Shown here one piece after another: positions 8,789-21,788 of a stretch of 64,000 nucleotides of DNA (positions are counted from its first letter, which is position 1; every line of letters begins with the position of its first letter). The stretch is from Escherichia phage vB_EcoM-UFV06, in sequence record OP555980.1. One strand, written 5' to 3'. The position numbers and the translations under genes were made by a program. Under the pieces are notes generated by a model, which did no database searches, was not told the origin of the DNA, and saw only the letters and a list, made by a program, of their open reading frames with translations.

Positions 8789-9004
8789 TTAAGCCTTTTT
8801 ATCAAGAACAGCATTCAGCTTGTTAGTAATTTTATCCAGACGCTCATTGAACTCACTAGAAGATAAGCCCTTTTCTGGAGAAATTAAACTAATAACGAAA
8901 AATACAACAATAAAAGGAATAAGGAAAATAGCTCCAACTGCCATAAACAGAAAGAATGTTACAGTTGTAAGAAAATCAGCTAAACCTTTACGAAATTTAT
9001 ACAT
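8789..9004 (-). CDS. Hypothetical small membrane protein (71 aa)
   Basis: One strongly hydrophobic predicted TM segment. Confidence 0.45.
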   Translation of the reverse strand: MYKFRKGLADFLTTVTFFLFMAVGAIFLIPFIVVFFVISLISPEKGLSSSEFNERLDKITNKLNAVLDKKA

Positions 9005-9119
9005 ATTTTACCCTTAATTGATTAACCAAGCATTGATAAACACTAAACTATATTGGGAATAAAATTCTGGACCAAAATGAAAAATCATATCATTTATAGT
9101 ATCCATAATGTAATTCAAT

Positions 9120-13165: not shown

Positions 13166-13381
13166 TTACCCCAATTTAACCATACAATCGCCGTATTTCC
13201 ACTTAGAAATAGACTTTTCACCATTAGAATAATAAACTTCGAGTTTAGCACGATTATTTTTAATTTGAATAACCTTTGCTGTCATCAAAGTTCCATACCC
13301 ATAATAAACTGCAACTTCATCACCTACATATACCGCGCTTCCGCGGTAATCATGGATATAATCAGTTCCTTCGAGAATCAT
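13166..13381 (-). CDS. Hypothetical protein (71 aa)
   Basis: ORF; stop overlaps the nrdC start. Confidence 0.4.
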   Translation of the reverse strand: MILEGTDYIHDYRGSAVYVGDEVAVYYGYGTLMTAKVIQIKNNRAKLEVYYSNGEKSISKWKYGDCMVKLG

Positions 13382-13641
13382 TTAAAGTATTCTCGCAGTT
13401 GGTCAAATCCACCAATATGACTTCCATCAGGAGCAAATACCTGAGGCATTGTCAAGCCGATTTGAGTATCACGACTTAGTTTAGTCAGAAGCTCAGCGAT
13501 TTTCTCATCATCAAAAACACCTTTTTCCGGCATAATGTTGATAAATTCAAACGGCTGTTTCTTCACGGTCAAAAGACGTTTTGCATTATCACAATACACA
13601 CATTTATGGATGTTGCTATCATAACCATATAATTTAAACAT
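13378..13641 (-). CDS. nrdC: Phage thioredoxin/glutaredoxin
   Basis: 87 aa; CVYC active site; matches recalled T4 NrdC. Confidence 0.85.
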   Translation of the reverse strand: MFKLYGYDSNIHKCVYCDNAKRLLTVKKQPFEFINIMPEKGVFDDEKIAELLTKLSRDTQIGLTMPQVFAPDGSHIGGFDQLREYFK

Positions 13642-13642
13642 A

Positions 13643-13885
13643 TTATTCCTTAATTCCTAGTACTTGTTTAAAAGTCTCGTCGTAATCAAGACTTTGGCCC
13701 GTTTGTTCTTTATGTTTGTATATAATATCACTTACTTCTGATAGCATATTTTTATATGAACGAGTTAAAGCAGATTTAAGCACGCTGTATCTATCAGGAA
13801 ATTTACCGTGTTCATTATAATAAGCTATTGCTAATTCACGGACTGCCTTTTCAGCAGCCTCCATATATTCTTTACGCTTGGTCAT
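13643..13885 (-). CDS. Hypothetical protein (about 80 aa)
   Basis: ATG at 13885 abuts the upstream stop. Confidence 0.4.
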
Positions 13886-13886
13886 T

Positions 13887-14276
13887 TTAATCCAAAATAT
13901 TATTAGGCATTGGTTGAACACTCACAAGTTCTTTAAAGAACTCAGTAGAGTCAGGCAATTTAACCATTTCCGGAGCATGCTTACTGAATTTATGTTTACA
14001 TTGACGGCATTTATATTCAAGCTCTGGTTTACGCCAGTTAATCAATTGAACTTGTTCAGTACCGCATTCAGGGCAATTAGGAACGTTTTTAGAAGCTCTT
14101 TCACGTCGTTCAACCATAGCCATAATAGCATCCCATGCTGGAGGTTTAAAATCTAAATCGTCGCAGCCGTGAATCTTTCCACGCATTTCCATATCATCTT
14201 CCTCACCAGCCATAATAATTTTAATTAGACTAGAATTACTTGAAGCTGCAATGTCTTCTAATAAACGCTTTTTCAT
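13887..14276 (-). CDS. Hypothetical zinc-ribbon protein (129 aa)
   Basis: CPECG...CRQC four-cysteine motif. Confidence 0.45.
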
Positions 14277-15199
14277 TTCAATACCTCAATAGCATTACGT
14301 AAACCATTTGCTTTTGCGTTAAGAGATTTTAACAATTTGGTGTGTTCTGCAATTTGGGCTTCAACTTCAATCAAACGGGCATTGAGATATTCGCGTTCTT
14401 CTTTCATAGTATCATTCCCATGATTGGGTTTTGGTGCAGATTTAAATTCACTAGGGTCCTTTAACTTAATAACAAATTTAGTTTCAAACAGTGAAAGACC
14501 ATAATTCGTATTATCATCAAAGGATTTAACTACATCCATATTAGATAATAACTCATGCAAATTATAAGACAAAGAACTAATAGTTTCATTGTGTTTATTA
14601 GCTTCGCGTGGTTTCATATACGGAAGATTTTTATATATCTCATGCGGAGCACAAATGATAATTGACAATTCAAATTGTCCATTCTGGGACGATGGAGTGA
14701 ATTTAGCCGTAACCCAGTCTTTTACATTCACATTAATAGTACGGTTATCACCATGACAAAACAATCTACGAGAATGCTTAAAAAGCATATTCACGTTATT
14801 ATTGAATTCGTGTGAAAATTCACTGGCAAATTTTTCTTTACTATCTTTAGAAAACCATTCTTCTAAATAAGTTCTTTTCACGTCGTTAATAATATTAAAT
14901 GTAACAACATTAGCATTTGATACATTAGTCTCAATGTAGCTTGGATACATAAATTTTTTAACATTATTAACAGCTATCACAGAAGATAGTAATCGGGAAC
15001 GTTTGAACCACTCGAGCAAAGAACCAAGAGAATGTGAATACGCGTTTTGCGTATCTTTACAAATATGGTTTTCCCATCCAATATAGTCTAAAAAATCACG
15101 AAGAATATTATTGATTACTGCTCTGTGTCCTATCTGATAATTACGATGTTTAGTAATAAGACTGTCAAAATAATCAATATAATGTTTACGAGTTTTCAT
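14273..15199 (-). CDS. Hypothetical protein (308 aa) with C-terminal coiled coil
   Basis: First of four tandem 300-340 aa ORFs with heptad-rich C-termini. Confidence 0.5.
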   Translation of the reverse strand: MKTRKHYIDYFDSLITKHRNYQIGHRAVINNILRDFLDYIGWENHICKDTQNAYSHSLGSLLEWFKRSRLLSSVIAVNNVKKFMYPSYIETNVSNANVVTFNIINDVKRTYLEEWFSKDSKEKFASEFSHEFNNNVNMLFKHSRRLFCHGDNRTINVNVKDWVTAKFTPSSQNGQFELSIIICAPHEIYKNLPYMKPREANKHNETISSLSYNLHELLSNMDVVKSFDDNTNYGLSLFETKFVIKLKDPSEFKSAPKPNHGNDTMKEEREYLNARLIEVEAQIAEHTKLLKSLNAKANGLRNAIEVLK

Positions 15200-15253
15200 G
15201 TTCTTCTCACTTGGTTAATGATTTATACTCCGAGCCATCCTTGGCTTTAAATT

Positions 15254-16255
15254 TTACTTAATTAACTGTAAAGCTTGTTCAAGACGATCAAGACGATTAA
15301 CGGATTCTTCCCAAATCTTTTTAGCCTTCTCATATTCTTTCTGTGCTTTATTAGAAATTTCTAGAGCTCCTTTATAAGCTTTTTCTAATGCAATAATTTC
15401 TGGACGAATTTCTACCGGTTCAGGCGAATCATCAAGATTATCCATTAGTTCCTCAAGGGTAGTTTCTTCTTTAGGGGTATTCACAATTTCTTCGCATTTT
15501 TGTTGGTAAATTTCTTTATCAGTCGGTGAATACGCACATTTCACTTCACGAAGACTAACTACAATTTTGTATCCTTCCCAACCACACATATTCTTAAAAG
15601 GATATGTATGAATATTTTCTACTGTTTCCATACAAAGTAATGCAGTCTCTAACTGACGAGTTATAGTGCTAGCAATTGAGAAAAATTTATTAATATTCTT
15701 TTGGTTAGCGTTTGGTGTAAAAAATCCATAATTCACAAAAATAGCTACTTTATTTTCGTCAAGCTCATATTCTTTTACGATAATCATATCAGAAGCCAAA
15801 GGATGAATTTGACGATAATCGCCATAACATAATTTAGAAGCTGATTTTAGAATTTGTCCTTTGAAAAGTCTGAAATTACTAATCCAACGACGAGTAAAAA
15901 TATTCTCAGGGTCTTCTTTATTATTAAGATGATAAGAATTAACATCACCGAACCAATTGTATCCTACTACATTTTTAGTTCGTTTAATTTCTTTCCCAAA
16001 TTTACCAAGAATATCTCTGTTAACTAAATATGAAAGAAGACGAGACCCTTTAAAGGTTTCCTTAATATCATCTTTATCTGCACGACTAGAAATTTTATGA
16101 ACTTCATGAATAAATTTGCTGGAAGAAACAATGCTTGCATCAGTATTATTGAGCCATTGATTGATAATAGAAATAACACTATTCTGACTAGACATAGGTT
16201 TAACTTTATCATCAATAACGCTATTGAATGATTTGATATATTCGTTGCGAGTCAT
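15254..16255 (-). CDS. Hypothetical protein (about 333 aa) with C-terminal coiled coil
   Basis: Probable ATG start at 16255. Confidence 0.5.
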   Translation of the reverse strand: MTRNEYIKSFNSVIDDKVKPMSSQNSVISIINQWLNNTDASIVSSSKFIHEVHKISSRADKDDIKETFKGSRLLSYLVNRDILGKFGKEIKRTKNVVGYNWFGDVNSYHLNNKEDPENIFTRRWISNFRLFKGQILKSASKLCYGDYRQIHPLASDMIIVKEYELDENKVAIFVNYGFFTPNANQKNINKFFSIASTITRQLETALLCMETVENIHTYPFKNMCGWEGYKIVVSLREVKCAYSPTDKEIYQQKCEEIVNTPKEETTLEELMDNLDDSPEPVEIRPEIIALEKAYKGALEISNKAQKEYEKAKKIWEESVNRLDRLEQALQLIK

Positions 16256-16312
16256 ATTAATCTCCTCAGTAGAAAGTAAGAACATTATACCACATCCTTG
16301 TGGCGAAGTAAA

Positions 16313-17332
16313 CTAGTTTAGTGCATTTAGTGCATTGTTCAATTTAGAACGTTGCTTTGTCAGATTTTGAACCCTTGACTGAGCTTGTTCTAACACCTTT
16401 TCAGCTTCTAGCACTTCATTGGTCGCTTTAATGAGTTCAGCATCTACTGCCTTAAGAGACTTCTCAATCGCGTCAGCGTGCCATTTTTCTACAGGTTTAA
16501 AATTTGAATTTTCAGTAGGAAGAAAATTCACTTTATTAAATTTCCATGCATCTTTATTACCTGAGCTATACATCCAAAATTTAGGATCGTTTGATGAGCA
16601 ATTAGATAAATTTAAGTTATCTTGTACTTCCTGCTTTTTCTCTTGCGGGACTTCATCCTTTCTCAAAAAATCGTATTTAAATGAAACGATCATATCAAGT
16701 TCATACGTTGTTGTATGTTCCCAATTTCGCTCAAAATGAGGTAAAATCTTAGACTGAACAGCGGCAACAACATCCATATACTTAAATGCTTCTGTCAACT
16801 GTGATTTAAGGCATTCACAAATTGAAAGAGAATTTTTTGTATTAGGCTTAAAGCTAATTCGTGCAGTTCTATTATTTTCTTTTAACGGTCTTACTTCCAT
16901 CTGAAGAGTATAACCATCAAATTTCAGGTTCTTTAAGTTAATGTCAGAACCTTTTAATCGACTAGCAGTAGACAAAATTTGCTTTAATTGTTTACGGAAT
17001 AAAGCAATAAATCTCCATTCAAGACGATAATGATTTGGATTAAAAAATCCTGTTGATAAATCAACCTTACTCTGACCAACGCCTTGAACAAATAGAGGAT
17101 TTTTATAATCAATAGTTTTACAGAAATCGGTGAGCTGCTCACGAGCAGTCATTTGTGTAATATATCCCGCTTTACTAAAATGACGTAACCATTCACTGCT
17201 ATTCATATACTTAAAGTGAATGGAACTATTAACTCTATCAGGGTCTAAATTATTTTGGCACAAAAATGTCATAACATTACGGGTATAGCTAGCATTACGA
17301 ACCATATCTTCAATTTGAGAACGAGTTTTCAT
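16313..17332 (-). CDS. Hypothetical protein (339 aa) with C-terminal coiled coil
   Basis: ORF. Confidence 0.5.
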   Translation of the reverse strand: MKTRSQIEDMVRNASYTRNVMTFLCQNNLDPDRVNSSIHFKYMNSSEWLRHFSKAGYITQMTAREQLTDFCKTIDYKNPLFVQGVGQSKVDLSTGFFNPNHYRLEWRFIALFRKQLKQILSTASRLKGSDINLKNLKFDGYTLQMEVRPLKENNRTARISFKPNTKNSLSICECLKSQLTEAFKYMDVVAAVQSKILPHFERNWEHTTTYELDMIVSFKYDFLRKDEVPQEKKQEVQDNLNLSNCSSNDPKFWMYSSGNKDAWKFNKVNFLPTENSNFKPVEKWHADAIEKSLKAVDAELIKATNEVLEAEKVLEQAQSRVQNLTKQRSKLNNALNALN

Positions 17333-17340
17333 AGTGTTCC

Positions 17341-18249
17341 TTAAGATTTAAGTAAATCAACAATTTTAATTAATTTTTCACGCTCAGATTTAGCTTTACT
17401 ACTCAATCCAGATAGTCTGAAAATTTCATCGTCATACTGTTGAATAGAAATATTTAGCTCTTCAATTTGCTTATTAAAATAATCAATTTGCTCAGAATGT
17501 TTTTCATTACTGCGAACTGGTATAGGGTTTGTAGGCAATTTAGTTGAACTAGATTCATCCGGGCGATAAATTAAAATACAACTTGAACCAATTGGACATT
17601 TTGCACCAGATGAATATTCTAATGTTCCGGCTTCTTTTAAAACTTCAAAAGCTAAACAGAGATGATGCCCCATATTAACATAATCTGTAGAGCGAGCTCT
17701 GATGTAATAATCATCTCCGCGAATACTAAATTTAAAGCATTTAAGGTCTTCTGTATTATTGGTCTTAAAAATCATTTGTTTATCTAGACCTTTAGCTAAT
17801 CGAGCGCCTAATGCTAATAATCGTCGTTGATTTTCCCACAAATCTGCGATCATTTGGTCAAATGATAATTTCGGCATTAGTCGACCATAAAGGTCATATC
17901 CTTTATTATAATTACGAAGGATTTCACTCGCGTTAATACGAGACAATGCTCCAATTTTATTAAGGGCTTTCATAATGCGATTAGATAAACCCATTCCAGA
18001 CCCGTTTGTTCGCTGCAAATGTTTTTCTAATCCAAATCCAATATCAACTTTAAACTTATCTAAAATTTCTGCATGAACATCTCTGTCAATAACATTCAAA
18101 TCCAAAGTTGGGTTAAATCTATGAAAAAATTTATCTGGCTCTCCACGACGAAGTACAGTCCATTCATTCATTTTTTTATTAACTAAAGATTTAATTACTG
18201 TATTGACATTATTAATTACTACTGACATATTTTCCTCACTCAATTTCAA
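17341..18249 (-). CDS. Hypothetical protein (302 aa) with C-terminal coiled coil
   Basis: ORF. Confidence 0.5.
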   Translation of the reverse strand: MKLSEENMSVVINNVNTVIKSLVNKKMNEWTVLRRGEPDKFFHRFNPTLDLNVIDRDVHAEILDKFKVDIGFGLEKHLQRTNGSGMGLSNRIMKALNKIGALSRINASEILRNYNKGYDLYGRLMPKLSFDQMIADLWENQRRLLALGARLAKGLDKQMIFKTNNTEDLKCFKFSIRGDDYYIRARSTDYVNMGHHLCLAFEVLKEAGTLEYSSGAKCPIGSSCILIYRPDESSSTKLPTNPIPVRSNEKHSEQIDYFNKQIEELNISIQQYDDEIFRLSGLSSKAKSEREKLIKIVDLLKS

Positions 18250-18643
18250 TTTTACTAAATATACAGAATATGATGGAAAAGACTATATAAGCACCACAAA
18301 CAGATTGAACTAATACCATTCCAAAGAACCAAACAATATTATCAAACCATGTCTGTTTTACGTCGAAAGGACGTAAACTTACAGTAATATTATCACCTTT
18401 TTCTATTGAAGAATACATCTCTGGGGAAATATATTCACTAAATCTATAACCGTCTTTGAGTTCATATACAGCAATAAACGATAAACTAGACCCCTTTCCT
18501 TGTGTTCCTGTAATAGTATTAACTACAGTAACATCATAATCTTTATAATGCATATAATCATTAATTGCGTAATAACCATATGCAACTACTACACATAAAC
18601 AACATATCAATAAATTCAATCTTTTAATTATCAACTGTTTCAT
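18236..18643 (-). CDS. Hypothetical membrane protein (135 aa)
   Basis: Hydrophobic N- and C-terminal segments. Confidence 0.45.
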   Translation of the reverse strand: MKQLIIKRLNLLICCLCVVVAYGYYAINDYMHYKDYDVTVVNTITGTQGKGSSLSFIAVYELKDGYRFSEYISPEMYSSIEKGDNITVSLRPFDVKQTWFDNIVWFFGMVLVQSVCGAYIVFSIIFCIFSKIEIE

Positions 18644-18698
18644 AATAATCTCAATTAAAAGGGCTTAGAACCATTATACCATCCTTGGTATAAAGCGG

Positions 18699-19226
18699 TT
18701 ATGCGAGTACCGTCTTTAACCGTTCTTCAAACTTCCGAAGAGTATTCTGGCGTTCAGCTCTTTGCTTTTTGTAAGTTTCAATACGCTCTGAAATGAGAGT
18801 GTATCGTTCATTTACTGATTCTTTCATAAAATCAGGAATTTCACGAGAAGCTTTAATCTCGTCAAATTTATCAATAACAGCTTGCTCTTCAGCAATTAAG
18901 TTATCATACATCAAAATATCTTTCTTGATGAACTCAATATCTTCTTGAGTTACACGAGATAATTTAAATGCTTTATCCTTTTTGTACTGTTCGTTAGTAT
19001 CACGAGACCAGTGTAATGTACGATTTTTATTCGTATTCTTATAAATTTCTACAATACCAATATCATCAATAATAACGATCCAATTCCAACGGGATTTGTA
19101 AATTTGTCCTCCATCAACTGTGATTTCACCTCCGATTGAGATGTCATTAAAGAACTTGCTTTGTGCTTCTGATTTAAATTTACCATCGTTGTAATTTACC
19201 AAGTTGAAAATATCTTTAGCGTTCAT
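18699..19226 (-). CDS. Hypothetical protein (about 175 aa)
   Basis: ATG at 19226 with GGAGG Shine-Dalgarno; the track N-terminal extension is translated promoter sequence. Confidence 0.5.
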   Translation of the reverse strand: MNAKDIFNLVNYNDGKFKSEAQSKFFNDISIGGEITVDGGQIYKSRWNWIVIIDDIGIVEIYKNTNKNRTLHWSRDTNEQYKKDKAFKLSRVTQEDIEFIKKDILMYDNLIAEEQAVIDKFDEIKASREIPDFMKESVNERYTLISERIETYKKQRAERQNTLRKFEERLKTVLA

Positions 19227-19254
19227 TTTCTGTTCCTCCGTAGTTGATAGTTGT

Positions 19255-19283
19255 ATAGTACCACAGAGGAACAGTCTTGTAAA
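19255..19283 (-). promoter_or_regulatory. Early promoter (sigma70-type)
   Basis: Minus-strand TTTACA, 17 bp, TACTAT; member of a conserved repeated block. Confidence 0.6.
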
Positions 19284-19286
19284 CAA

Positions 19287-19601
19287 CTAAAAGAAACTTC
19301 TTTCACAATTTTTTCCACTGAACCACGCGCTCACTGCTTTCTTAGTCTCAGGAGCAGTGTTATCCATAAACCATTCAAAGGCAGCCTTTTTATGATTCTG
19401 GAGGGCTTCTCGGGCTTTAATCTGCTCACGGTCTATTAACACTAACATATGAGCCTTTCTTGTCACCATGGGCTTCTTATGATTTTTTGAATATTCCCAA
19501 TCATTTGTCCATCGCATCGTTGTTGCGAATTGAAGTACAGCTTCTTTAATTTTAGTTTCGTAAATTTCACGAGCCTTTGAGTATAACATTACTACCTCCA
19601 T
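19287..19601 (-). CDS. Hypothetical protein (104 aa)
   Basis: ORF. Confidence 0.45.
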   Translation of the reverse strand: MEVVMLYSKAREIYETKIKEAVLQFATTMRWTNDWEYSKNHKKPMVTRKAHMLVLIDREQIKAREALQNHKKAAFEWFMDNTAPETKKAVSAWFSGKNCERSFF

Positions 19602-19690
19602 TTACCAGTTTAATTCTAGTCATCTTTTTGATGGCAGTCCATATAATCTATTTCTGAACTGCCTTTTTATCTTAGAAGGCCTCTTATGAA

Positions 19691-20659
19691 TTATTTCAGA
19701 AGAGTAACCTCAGCGATTTCTTCCCAACCGTTTTTGTCGGTCATAATAAAGTCAGCAAGATAAAGAGCAGTACGCAGTGAAACATTGCGTAAACGATTAA
19801 CATTGACTTTCATCCATGATAATGCTTTATAAGTTTCTTCATCAGAAAGACCGCGCTTTTGCATCATGTCAGTTGAAAGAATAACATCTTCAACCCTGAC
19901 CATAATTTCTTCATTAGTGTGAACACCCAAATCCAAATAAACTGAGCGGGACACTAATGCTTGTAAATGTGGAGCAAGTTTAGTACCACGGTCTAATTCG
20001 CGGTCAATGTCAACGTTTGTGATAAAAACAATCGTTCCTTTAAATTCAAACTCACGCTCAATGCCTTTTTCTTCTAAGTAAGAAGATGCAGTGCTCCAGC
20101 AGACTTTACGGGTCTCTCCAGTGTCCAGAGCAGCTTTCAGAAGATTAAGAATGTCCATATCAGAGAAAACATCCACATCATCAATCAAAAGGACAGAATT
20201 CTCTTCACGATTATTCCAAAGCTGCTCATAAAGACCAATACCAGAGATTTTACCATTAATGCTTTTATATTCAATGTATCCAATATCATTTGCTTTATTT
20301 AAAGCTTTATCTAAAGAATACGTTTTACCAATACCCGCCGCACCAGAGATAATTAATGAACGAATGTTTCCGTTAATAATACCATTCGTCATCATTCCCA
20401 TAACATTAAATCTTTTATTAATGCGGGTTTTCATATCTTCATATGATTCTTTAACTTCTTCAACTTTTACACCATCATATGAAATGTCTGATTTGTAAAC
20501 CCAAACACCGCGACGTTTACCGTCAATTTCAACAAAAACTTTACCATCTCCTTGTGCATCTACTGGGGCATTATCAGGGAACCACTCACCTAAGAGTTCA
20601 AAAGTTCCAGAGATTTCTTTGCCAAAGTAGATACCCTTATTGATAGTTACAGTTTTCAT
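19691..20659 (-). CDS. P-loop/AAA-type ATPase, function unknown
   Basis: Walker A GAAGIGKTYS and Walker B LLIDDVD; ATG at 20659 downstream of an early promoter. Confidence 0.6.
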   Translation of the reverse strand: MKTVTINKGIYFGKEISGTFELLGEWFPDNAPVDAQGDGKVFVEIDGKRRGVWVYKSDISYDGVKVEEVKESYEDMKTRINKRFNVMGMMTNGIINGNIRSLIISGAAGIGKTYSLDKALNKANDIGYIEYKSINGKISGIGLYEQLWNNREENSVLLIDDVDVFSDMDILNLLKAALDTGETRKVCWSTASSYLEEKGIEREFEFKGTIVFITNVDIDRELDRGTKLAPHLQALVSRSVYLDLGVHTNEEIMVRVEDVILSTDMMQKRGLSDEETYKALSWMKVNVNRLRNVSLRTALYLADFIMTDKNGWEEIAEVTLLK

Positions 20660-20693
20660 TTTATTCTCCAAATCCGTATCAGTTGATAGTTGT

Positions 20694-20722
20694 ATAGTAC
20701 CATAAAGCTTTATGCTTGTAAA
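20694..20722 (-). promoter_or_regulatory. Early promoter (sigma70-type)
   Basis: Minus-strand TTTACA, 17 bp, TACTAT; same conserved block. Confidence 0.6.
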
Positions 20723-20754
20723 CTGTTTTGTGAAAAAATTTTTGAAATAAAAAA

Positions 20755-20772
20755 GGGAGCCCGAAGGCTCCC
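20755..20772 (-). terminator. Intrinsic terminator
   Basis: gggagcc-cgaa-ggctccc stem-loop followed by TTTTTT on the minus strand. Confidence 0.65.
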
Positions 20773-20774
20773 TA

Positions 20775-21788
20775 TCATTTATAATAACTTCGGTGGTTTT
20801 CAAGATAGACCTTCTCAAGGAAGTCATCCCAGAAACCCATGTCTACTTTTTGCTGCATACCGTTCTTAGAAGCTTCAGTAGATGCTGCTTCTACTTGATC
20901 GACCACATCTTCCAAAAACTCTTGAACTGTTTTAAATGGATGTTTACCCAACTTCACGTCGAGAATAAATGGAGCGTCTTGAAGTGGATAAACTAAGTCA
21001 CCAGTTTTGTAAATTTCCAATAGTTGAAGTCCACCACGACAGGCATGGCTCAGAGCTTTCCAGTCAATACCTTCATTGGCTTCGGCCTTACGAGCACGTT
21101 CACCATATTCAGCATCTAATTTGTTCAGTGACTGCTTAAGCTCAATAAGAGAAAGCGTTGTCTGATATTTACGACCCAACACAGTGTAGAACGTTTGTGG
21201 GCCTGTTTTCTCATGATTATGGAACACCCATTCACAGAATTCGTTTTCTGGAAGACGATGCTTAATATCTTCAATTTTAGTGCGACGTTGTCCTTGTGTT
21301 CCATCTTCTCGGTAGACATTCCGTTGATCAGGAATTTGATTAACTACTTTCAACACATCACGTAATGCAGCCAAACGAGAACCCTTGACACCGTATTTAG
21401 AAGCTTGCTTGCGAACATATCCTAAATAGGATTTCATGTTAGTCGTATAAAAACGAGAACGATTGTCTTGAATAAACTTCCACACATCAGGCAAATCAGA
21501 TTTAACCACTAGTTCAGGTGGAGTGTGAAGCATATCCAATGCTACAGTTTCACCATCTGCTGCTAATTTAAAGAAATACTTAAGACTATACAATTCGTGG
21601 TCAATATCATCTTTAGTGTTTTTAGATGATGTGTTGTTAGTGTTTTTACTCATGTGCTCTTTGACATTTCCAATAAGAATATCGCGAGCAGGAGGAACAA
21701 AGATTTCTTTAAAATCTACATCAGATTCTGGAGTAGAAGTTCCATAAAGATGACTACCAAAATAGCTTTTCATTACTGTTTTCATCAT
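20775..21788 (-). CDS. Predicted nucleotidyltransferase (pol-beta superfamily fold)
   Basis: N-terminal GSHLYGTSTPESDVDF matches the G[SG]x(9-13)DxD nucleotidyltransferase signature; 337 aa. Confidence 0.5.
   Translation of the reverse strand: MMKTVMKSYFGSHLYGTSTPESDVDFKEIFVPPARDILIGNVKEHMSKNTNNTSSKNTKDDIDHELYSLKYFFKLAADGETVALDMLHTPPELVVKSDLPDVWKFIQDNRSRFYTTNMKSYLGYVRKQASKYGVKGSRLAALRDVLKVVNQIPDQRNVYREDGTQGQRRTKIEDIKHRLPENEFCEWVFHNHEKTGPQTFYTVLGRKYQTTLSLIELKQSLNKLDAEYGERARKAEANEGIDWKALSHACRGGLQLLEIYKTGDLVYPLQDAPFILDVKLGKHPFKTVQEFLEDVVDQVEAASTEASKNGMQQKVDMGFWDDFLEKVYLENHRSYYK

Follow-up and report, generated by a model that had tools for sequence, protein, structure and literature searches.

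Phage T4 nrdC.5 encodes a DUF7235 protein that counteracts the sirtuin defense Dsr1. A T4 clone that had evolved compensatory deletions became unable to infect ECOR17; deletion of dsr1 from the host restored infection, cloned dsr1 shielded MG1655 from the same clone, and plasmid-expressed nrdC.5, termed an early gene, restored plating of the deletion phage on dsr1-carrying cells (Srikant, Guegler and Laub, eLife 2022, PMC9391042). A 2026 preprint (PMC12803255) names the phage major capsid protein as the trigger of Dsr1's tetratricopeptide repeat (TPR) sensor. Here, we analyzed a 64,000-nucleotide stretch of DNA from Escherichia phage vB_EcoM-UFV06 (OP555980.1; hereafter, the window), in which the ortholog of nrdC.5 is one of four tandem open reading frames (ORFs), designated A to D, on the minus strand. 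Our results suggest, with a probability of about 0.6, that the four genes are anciently duplicated, strongly diverged paralogs coding for early-expressed, dispensable counter-defense proteins with an oligomerizing tail.

Of the described proteins, T4 NrdC.5 is the closest to this locus: C is its ortholog and matches DUF7235 over the full length, A and B have the same globular domain by profile comparison, and D resembles it in overall architecture. Unlike NrdC.5, A, B, and D are remote relatives without a known phenotype. A purely functional analogy can be drawn with DSAD1, the SPbeta phage inhibitor of DSR2, as here too a phage protein shuts off a SIR2-domain NADase defense protein; DSAD1 binds DSR2 directly, and the DSR2 sensor recognizes a virion protein. 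However, the target is DSR2 and not Dsr1, the trigger is the tail tube and not the major capsid protein, the host belongs to another clade, no paralog array has been reported, and the likeness to NrdC.5 is one of description rather than of sequence or fold. Further comparison is offered by T4 IPI, IPIII, Dmd, TifA, and AdfA, which are non-essential, lie in hypervariable accessory regions, each neutralize one defense, and can be lost without cost on laboratory hosts (PMC9391042). In contrast to these small, unrelated, and single-copy proteins, the nrdC array would represent one fold duplicated into three to four genes with a shared coiled-coil tail.

The 3,977-base stretch spanning the four ORFs (14273..18249) matched 506 phage records, most of them at 90-95% nucleotide identity and Escherichia phage vB_EcoM-UFV09 at 100%; in 461 records, the match extends over at least 80% of the stretch. 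Almost all of the 506 records come from T4-like phages that infect E. coli, Shigella, or Yersinia, and by its sequence, the window, with a GC content of ~34% throughout, is assigned to Tequatrovirus. Using gene names from the gene-name-annotated relative vB-Eco-KMB42 and from the RB69 and T4 records, we identify A, B, C, and D as orthologs of T4 nrdC.3, nrdC.4, nrdC.5, and nrdC.6, respectively. The minus-strand order, nrdC.8-nrdC.7-D-C-B-A-nrdC.2-nrdC.1-nrdC, matches that of T4, and the PHROGs of D, C, B, and A (2257, 2351, 1435, and 1435) are identical in the T4 record. C is 91.5% identical to T4 NrdC.5, with equal length and the same gene neighbors. The preliminary description of this DNA, made from its letters, had listed four tandem ORFs of 300-340 amino acids (aa). 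All four are indeed open, co-oriented, separated by small gaps of 8-57 nucleotides (nt), and free of internal stops, and the coordinates given for A, B, and C are right.

Pfam and PHROGs place the four proteins in three separate families. C matched the Pfam DUF7235 model (PF23882) over its full length (residues 1-339) with 396.9 bits, against a gathering cutoff of 30, and the model found no match in A, B, or D. The phrog_1435 profile aligned end to end with A (335 bits) and B (557 bits) and did not match C or D. By BLASTP, A aligned with B at E=1.8e-4 and B with C at E=0.02, both colinearly and with ~26% and ~29% identity (the latter over 140 residues), while the remaining pairs, D included, were below detection; this agrees with the preliminary description, which had called the similarity weak by eye. 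Family-level comparisons of A and B gave stronger signals. A matched nrdC.4 orthologs of other genera with E values of about 1e-8 to 1e-9, hhalign of the two family profiles returned a probability of 97.8% (E=8e-13) over ~220 colinear residues, and the families still merged in iterative hidden Markov model (HMM) searches from which the last 65 residues had been removed. We regard A and B as clear homologs.

We found that profiles devoid of the coil also linked A/B to C, with probabilities of 93.9-94.4% (E=1.6e-7 in local and 1.7e-8 in global mode), as compared to 0.1-0.5% for reversed-sequence nulls. When coil-less HMMs were run on 375 ORFs from 22 loci, the best-scoring non-members for A/B were all C proteins, and those for C were all A/B proteins. 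At the profile level, the homology of C to A/B through the globular domain, without the tail, is established. An exhaustive C-profile search of 1.84 billion representative proteins recovered exclusively the 13 representatives of C's own family and no bridge to others.

D was linked to the remaining proteins by predicted structure. AlphaFold2 models were made for B and D (mean predicted local distance difference test, pLDDT, of 83.9 and 78.2, respectively) and searched with Foldseek. The B model matched NrdC.6 of JS10 (E=3.9e-5, probability 1.00) and an NrdC.3-type protein (E=1.3e-8), and the latter was also matched by the D model (E=7.9e-4); these reciprocal matches had probabilities of 0.97-1.00. 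Eight structural neighbors of ~300-370 aa from other T4-like phages matched both models at E<=0.001, namely, proteins of IME523, PM2, Acj61, Acj9, fHyAci03, and Cronus, the NrdC.3-type protein, and JS10 NrdC.6. The IME523 protein reached E ~4.5e-8 with each model, whereas the CBH8 and PS2 proteins matched the B model well and the D model more weakly. Furthermore, from about residue 120 through the C terminus, each secondary-structure element of one model has a counterpart in the other, in the same order.

Sequence offered weaker bridges. With the coil-less D HMM, gp082 of Karamvirus PG7, a single-copy protein, ranked first among the 375 ORFs (E=0.006), followed mostly by A/B proteins, and by hhalign, gp082 aligned weakly and colinearly with A/B as well as with D (E=0.0024 and 0.0029). 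A search for gp082 relatives from which an intermediate profile could be built returned close relatives alone, and the Acj61, S16, and DLP2 candidates, each aligned as a single sequence to the family profiles with hhalign, gave no informative result. All four proteins carry a similar conserved helix-turn block, located on helices that correspond to one another in the B and D models; its equivalence across families was found by eye and constitutes weak corroboration of kinship. Last, the adjacency D-C-(A/B) is kept across genera. From the predicted structures, together with these sub-threshold sequence bridges, we infer that D is homologous to the others, and its membership in the same family, which rests on predicted structure, architecture, and gene position, is quite probable. 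The evidence for kinship is thus graded: clear by sequence for A-B, at the profile level for C, and by predicted structure and context for D. The earlier suggestion of divergent paralogs was largely right; it stands by sequence and profile for A, B, and C, and for D it is carried by predicted structure, with no significant sequence signal. Profile and structure comparisons, which the preliminary description had proposed as its decisive check, did detect similarity (hhalign and Foldseek).

Several results weigh against the reading of the array as four counter-defense paralogs. Neither BLASTP nor profile comparison related D significantly to A, B, or C, and the Foldseek TM-scores were modest (0.2-0.5 over whole models, with large root mean square deviation). 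The low scores are partly explained by the long predicted helix, freely oriented on a flexible linker, and the same helix also inflates the aligned length. These points would fit a locus in which only A, B, and C are paralogs and D is an unrelated neighbor that acquired its size and C-terminal helix independently. Terminal helices may be common in the region, as NrdC.8 (175 aa), whose gene lies directly upstream of the array, seemingly has a long charged helix at its end too (KKQRAERQNTLRKFEERLKTVLA) and is unrelated to the four proteins by profile. We consider the independent origin of D unlikely, given the reciprocal Foldseek matches, the eight shared neighbors all from the same kind of phage, the one-to-one correspondence of secondary structure, the bridge through PG7 gp082, the similar block on an equivalent helix, and the conserved adjacency.

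The other opposing results concern the tails and the function. Two links obtained with full-length iterative HMMs were dropped, a merger of the A seed with the C family, which vanished once the last 65 residues were cut, and a connection of D to PG7 gp082, which was lost once tails were cut; these mergers arose because the coiled-coil tails drove them. Tail-only profile comparisons between families gave no significant similarity. The shared tails are an architectural likeness without detectable shared sequence and so do not count as evidence of homology. Searches of the sequence profiles against PDB chains yielded nothing meaningful, and no solved structure gave a biochemical clue; Pfam and NCBIfam scans of the four proteins gave none either, DUF7235 for C being the sole match. 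A phenotype has been demonstrated for nrdC.5 alone of the four genes, and we found nothing that links A, B, or D to defense. Finally, the ratio of nonsynonymous to synonymous substitution rates (dN/dS) was below 1 for all genes.

With respect to architecture, all four proteins consist of a globular alpha/beta domain of ~230-280 aa followed by a long heptad-periodic C-terminal region. In the B and D models, the domain is followed by a flexible linker of 20-25 residues, predicted to be disordered, and then by one amphipathic helix of ~50 residues; the tails of A and C, likewise heptad-periodic, comprise 45-57 residues (Table 1). In a scan for hydrophobic a/d register, more than 95% of whole-protein shuffles scored lower than residues 263-298 of A, 283-339 of C, and 246-280 of D. 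The maximum was reached by 1 of 200 shuffles for A and by none of 200 for D, and in the C tail, 29 consecutive windows exceeded 95% of the shuffles. The B tail was not significant in this crude test. Hydrophobic periodicity of 3.5 residues over the last 42 residues was strongest in B (best period 3.50), followed by C, D, and A. The heptad-rich ends that the preliminary description had ascribed to all four ORFs are therefore real but uneven, as each tail was significant in at least one of the two periodicity tests against shuffles. Heptad periodicity over at least four to five heptads in a continuous helix, as expected of a coiled coil, is borne out by these tests and by the helices of the B and D models, and oligomerization is predicted. 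At the opposite end, the three similar N-terminal motifs noted before were found in A (MKTRKHY), C (MKTRSQI), and B (MTRNEY), with the first 12 nt identical between A and C, whereas D differs (MSVVINN).

Table 1. Coordinates of the four ORFs and of associated features in the window.
Feature	Position	Strand	Extent	Remarks
A, T4 nrdC.3 ortholog	14273..15199	-	308 aa	Full-length phrog_1435 match, E=8.7e-100
A heptad-rich C-terminal tail	14276..14410	-	residues 264-308	a/d register scan; periodicity z=1.7
A conserved helix-turn block MLFKHSRRLFCHGDNR	14741..14788	-		Ranks third in conservation among 20-residue windows of the A family
Short GC-rich hairpin GCCAAGGATGGC	15230-15247			In the 54-nt gap between B and A
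B, T4 nrdC.4 ortholog	15254..16255	-	333 aa	phrog_1435; homologs carry Pfam PF26897
B terminal helix	15260..15403	-	residues 285-332 (48 residues)	AlphaFold2 prediction; 3.5-residue periodicity z=7.8
B acidic, proline-containing linker PKEETTLEELMDNLDDSPEPVEIR	15404..15475	-	residues 261-284	Predicted disordered, pLDDT <50 over 261-286
B conserved helix-turn block ILKSASKLCYGDYR	15812..15853	-		I135, K137, A139, K141, G145, D146, and R148 (near-)invariant
Putative T4-early-type promoter-like site	16284..16312	-		Between C and B, before B; (G)TTTACT, 17-nt spacer, TGgTATAAT
C, T4 nrdC.5 ortholog	16313..17332	-	339 aa	Pfam DUF7235 (PF23882), E=9e-119; phrog_2351
C heptad-rich C-terminal tail	16316..16486	-	residues 283-339	a/d register scan; periodicity z=4.2
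C conserved helix-turn block ILSTASRLKGSDIN	16937..16978	-		Overlaps the two 20-residue windows that are best conserved in the C family
D, T4 nrdC.6 ortholog	17341..18228	-	295 aa	phrog_2257; homologs carry PF26899; probable start
D terminal helix	17347..17496	-	residues 245-294 (50 residues)	AlphaFold2 prediction; a/d register scan; periodicity z=3.1
D proline-rich linker SSTKLPTNPIPVRSNEKH	17497..17550	-	residues 227-244	Predicted disordered, pLDDT <50 over 227-241
D conserved helix-turn block LLALGARLAKGLDKQ	17776..17820	-		Best-conserved window of the D family; nearly every residue from N133 to Q151 invariant
NrdC.8	18699-19226	-	175 aa	Upstream of the array
NrdC.10	19691-20659			P-loop GAAGIGKT
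NrdC.11	20775-21788			Nucleotidyltransferase annotation in related records

Conservation across relatives, another check named in the preliminary description, revealed a syntenic locus, which is known, as far as seen, from T4-like phages (Straboviridae) only and carries one to four copies depending on the genus, always at the nrdC to nrdC.10 position. Tequatrovirus has D-C-B-A, and the distant loci of VR- and JS98/JS10-type phages (L006-L015), which we take to be the genera Gaprivervirus and Dhakavirus, have D-C-B. RB69 (Mosigvirus) has D-C and an A-type gene and lacks B. This arrangement led us to reject the idea that A is a Tequatrovirus-specific duplicate of B: because RB69 has the A-type gene without B, the A/B split predates Tequatrovirus. 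In PG7, TU02, and Virsaitis27, one long member was recruited, beside an unclassified ORF of ~260 aa; for PG7 and Virsaitis27, the recruitment was weak once tails were removed. S16 (Gelderlandvirus) carries one long candidate in the same position that is not significantly linked. The Acinetobacter phage Acj61, of another subfamily (Twarogvirinae), has a tandem pair, Acj61p120 and Acj61p121 (330 and 304 aa; locus L027, 35452-36444 and 36558-37472), between nrdC and nrdC.10, and both proteins end in heptad helices. No sequence similarity to the T4 families was detectable for the pair; its lengths match the BFVD hits E5E4A1 and E5E4A2, for which the same fold is predicted.

The array evolves faster than its neighbors and is nevertheless under purifying selection. 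Between genera, identity was 19-24% for C, 31-42% for D, and 41-53% for B, as compared to 57-82% for nrdC.8, nrdC.10, and nrdC.11. Within Tequatrovirus, dN/dS was 0.14-0.35 for A to C and 0.04-0.17 for D, against 0.01-0.14 for the same three neighbors. The label "rapidly evolving" that the locus had been given holds in this relative sense; selection would be relaxed or episodic, with no demonstrated gene-wide positive selection. nrdC.3 occurs within Tequatrovirus as two alleles that are 62% identical (L005 11057-11986, L009 11056-11985, and L002 1606-2535), although the flanking genes are >90% identical. The adjacent nrdC.2 is also mosaic (47-78% in L009 and L003), and the nrdC.3/nrdC.2 area looks like a local recombination hotspot.

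Rearranged members were found as well. nrdC.4 is split into two ORFs in L009 (9971-10552 and 10527-11003), and half-length fragments of 155-158 aa, apparently also split, are present in BFVD for phages G8 (A0A482N302) and T2 (A0A2Z5WKJ2); such splits are consistent with a dispensable gene. One protein, P0225 (three contigs of up to 167 kb), joins NrdC.5 residues 145-271 to an NrdC.3-type sequence from about residue 134, with nrdC.4 and both flanking domain halves absent. We rejected its interpretation as a C/B hybrid showing colinearity, as it is a C-to-A deletion fusion at non-equivalent positions. The NrdC.6 ortholog of Shigella phage Sf25 (P0065) measures 378 aa and contains a tandem duplication of residues 183-265 (83 residues). 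Together, the divergence, the changes in copy number, and the split, fused, and duplicated variants fit dispensable accessory genes under changing selection.

The same data bear on the possibility that the four proteins are subunits of one hetero-oligomer, joined by their C-terminal helices and serving a single function. A long amphipathic terminal helix of a compatible kind is found in each protein, and the genes are co-located, co-oriented, and closely spaced. Such an obligate complex would hardly be expected to vary from one to four members by genus or to have members lost, split, or fused in nature; moreover, the tails contain no conserved pairing sequence, and nrdC.5 alone, supplied from a plasmid, rescues the deletion phage, which may retain other nrdC genes, on dsr1 cells. 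We consider a single four-part complex very unlikely.

With respect to function, C would overcome the Dsr1 sirtuin defense in the manner of T4 NrdC.5, the activity having been shown for the T4 protein and extended to C by orthology. The host-interaction role that the preliminary description proposed for the array is therein backed for one member, T4 nrdC.5 against Dsr1 (PMC9391042). In the paralogous array that we favor, a set of inhibitors would be expressed early, and each diversified globular domain would bind and neutralize one particular host immune protein. For C, the target would be the sirtuin/TPR protein Dsr1, most likely bound directly, and binding would prevent the NADase activation that the capsid protein triggers. 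By analogy with DSAD1 and DSR2, an inhibitor already bound before the late-expressed trigger appears could block activation. The terminal helix may oligomerize the inhibitor as a coiled coil, which would raise the avidity or trap the target within an inactive assembly, and A, B, and D may be aimed at other defense systems or other variants. Direct binding to Dsr1, oligomerization through the tail, and an anti-defense role of A, B, and D are parts of this model that we infer.

A different mode of action can be imagined, in which each paralog is an early decoy or plug for a different TPR-type immune sensor (Dsr1, Avs7-like proteins, and their relatives) and the tails multimerize the decoys, possibly into mixed oligomers. 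The predicted alpha/beta core faintly resembles the tail-terminator (tail-completion, lambda gpU-like) fold of virions. Simple mimicry, by which a tail-terminator-like core would imitate the Dsr1 trigger, is unsupported, as that trigger is reported to be the major capsid protein (PMC12803255). We regard the decoy mechanism as quite unlikely; if it were true, copy number and allele turnover at the locus would track the defense repertoire of the host population.

Many GenBank records suggest yet another identity. They label the products of nrdC.1 to nrdC.11 "thioredoxin," and the genes adjoin nrdC, as would suit thioredoxin-like or nucleotide-metabolism accessory proteins. This identity is effectively refuted: Pfam and NCBIfam detected no thioredoxin or other redox domain in the four proteins, the CxxC motif is absent from all of them, and the predicted fold is a helical and alpha/beta domain with a coiled-coil tail. 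The label, carried in the records for positions 13378-21788 of the window, is a naming artifact propagated from locus-style gene names.

Next to the genes themselves, we evaluated their starts and the sequences between them. The preliminary description had correctly placed the starts of A, B, and C and had begun D at 18249. This TTG is the first possible start of D and would give 302 aa; ATG 18228, which gives 295 aa, is probably the true start, because a GAGGA ribosome binding site precedes it, homologs measure 295-296 aa, residue 8 of the TTG version is where the PHROG match starts, and the T4 gene call is 296 aa. B probably starts at 16255, because a GAGGAG ribosome binding site is present there; residues M1, T2, R3, E5, Y6, and I7 of the resulting protein are invariant in 36 homologs. 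Many records take ATG 16285 as the nrdC.4 start (343 aa), and we disfavor it because it falls inside the -10 box of the T4-early-type promoter-like site before B. This site matches the consensus at 10 of 12 positions and carries an extended -10 TG; it was called by consensus match alone and is putative. It is the sole good early-like site within the array, and a scan of the array for MotA boxes (middle promoters) found nothing. The hairpin downstream of B has no T-run on the coding (minus) strand and is not a clear terminator.

Neighboring genes showed further differences between genera. In L006-L015, a conserved ORF of 67-71 aa lies between the nrdC.6 and nrdC.5 orthologs (~8830-9070), overlapping the nrdC.5 start; it is absent from the window. 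A protein of ~260 aa (MLTEII..ENRKA start) precedes the single long member or candidate in Karamvirus, Gelderlandvirus, Jiaodavirus, and Winklervirus (L018 17801-18577, L019 16250-17032, L020 17110-17928, and L021 16900-17703); it has neither profile similarity to A to D nor a coiled-coil tail. The fast-evolving array lies near a slowly evolving pair, NrdC.10 and NrdC.11, of which the latter shows high conservation throughout Straboviridae (1,503 phage records).

Although T4 is one of the phages that have been studied best, three of the four genes are without an assigned function. In the searchable literature, we found neither a functional statement on nrdC.3, nrdC.4, or nrdC.6 nor an account of the four as one family; the relationship appears undescribed, although the genes are long-known T4 ORFs. 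What is new here is this family relationship and the candidates that result from it, the counter-defense role of one member having already been published. The family link makes NrdC.3, NrdC.4, and NrdC.6 candidates for counter-defense proteins and extends the candidates to their many relatives in T4-like phages that infect Klebsiella, Acinetobacter, Erwinia, Serratia, and other hosts, with the conserved block and the probable oligomerization tail as places to mutate. It also corrects the widespread "thioredoxin" annotation of these genes. For phage therapy, the locus is relevant in that phages that are otherwise nearly identical differ in it, and its effect on host range has already been demonstrated.

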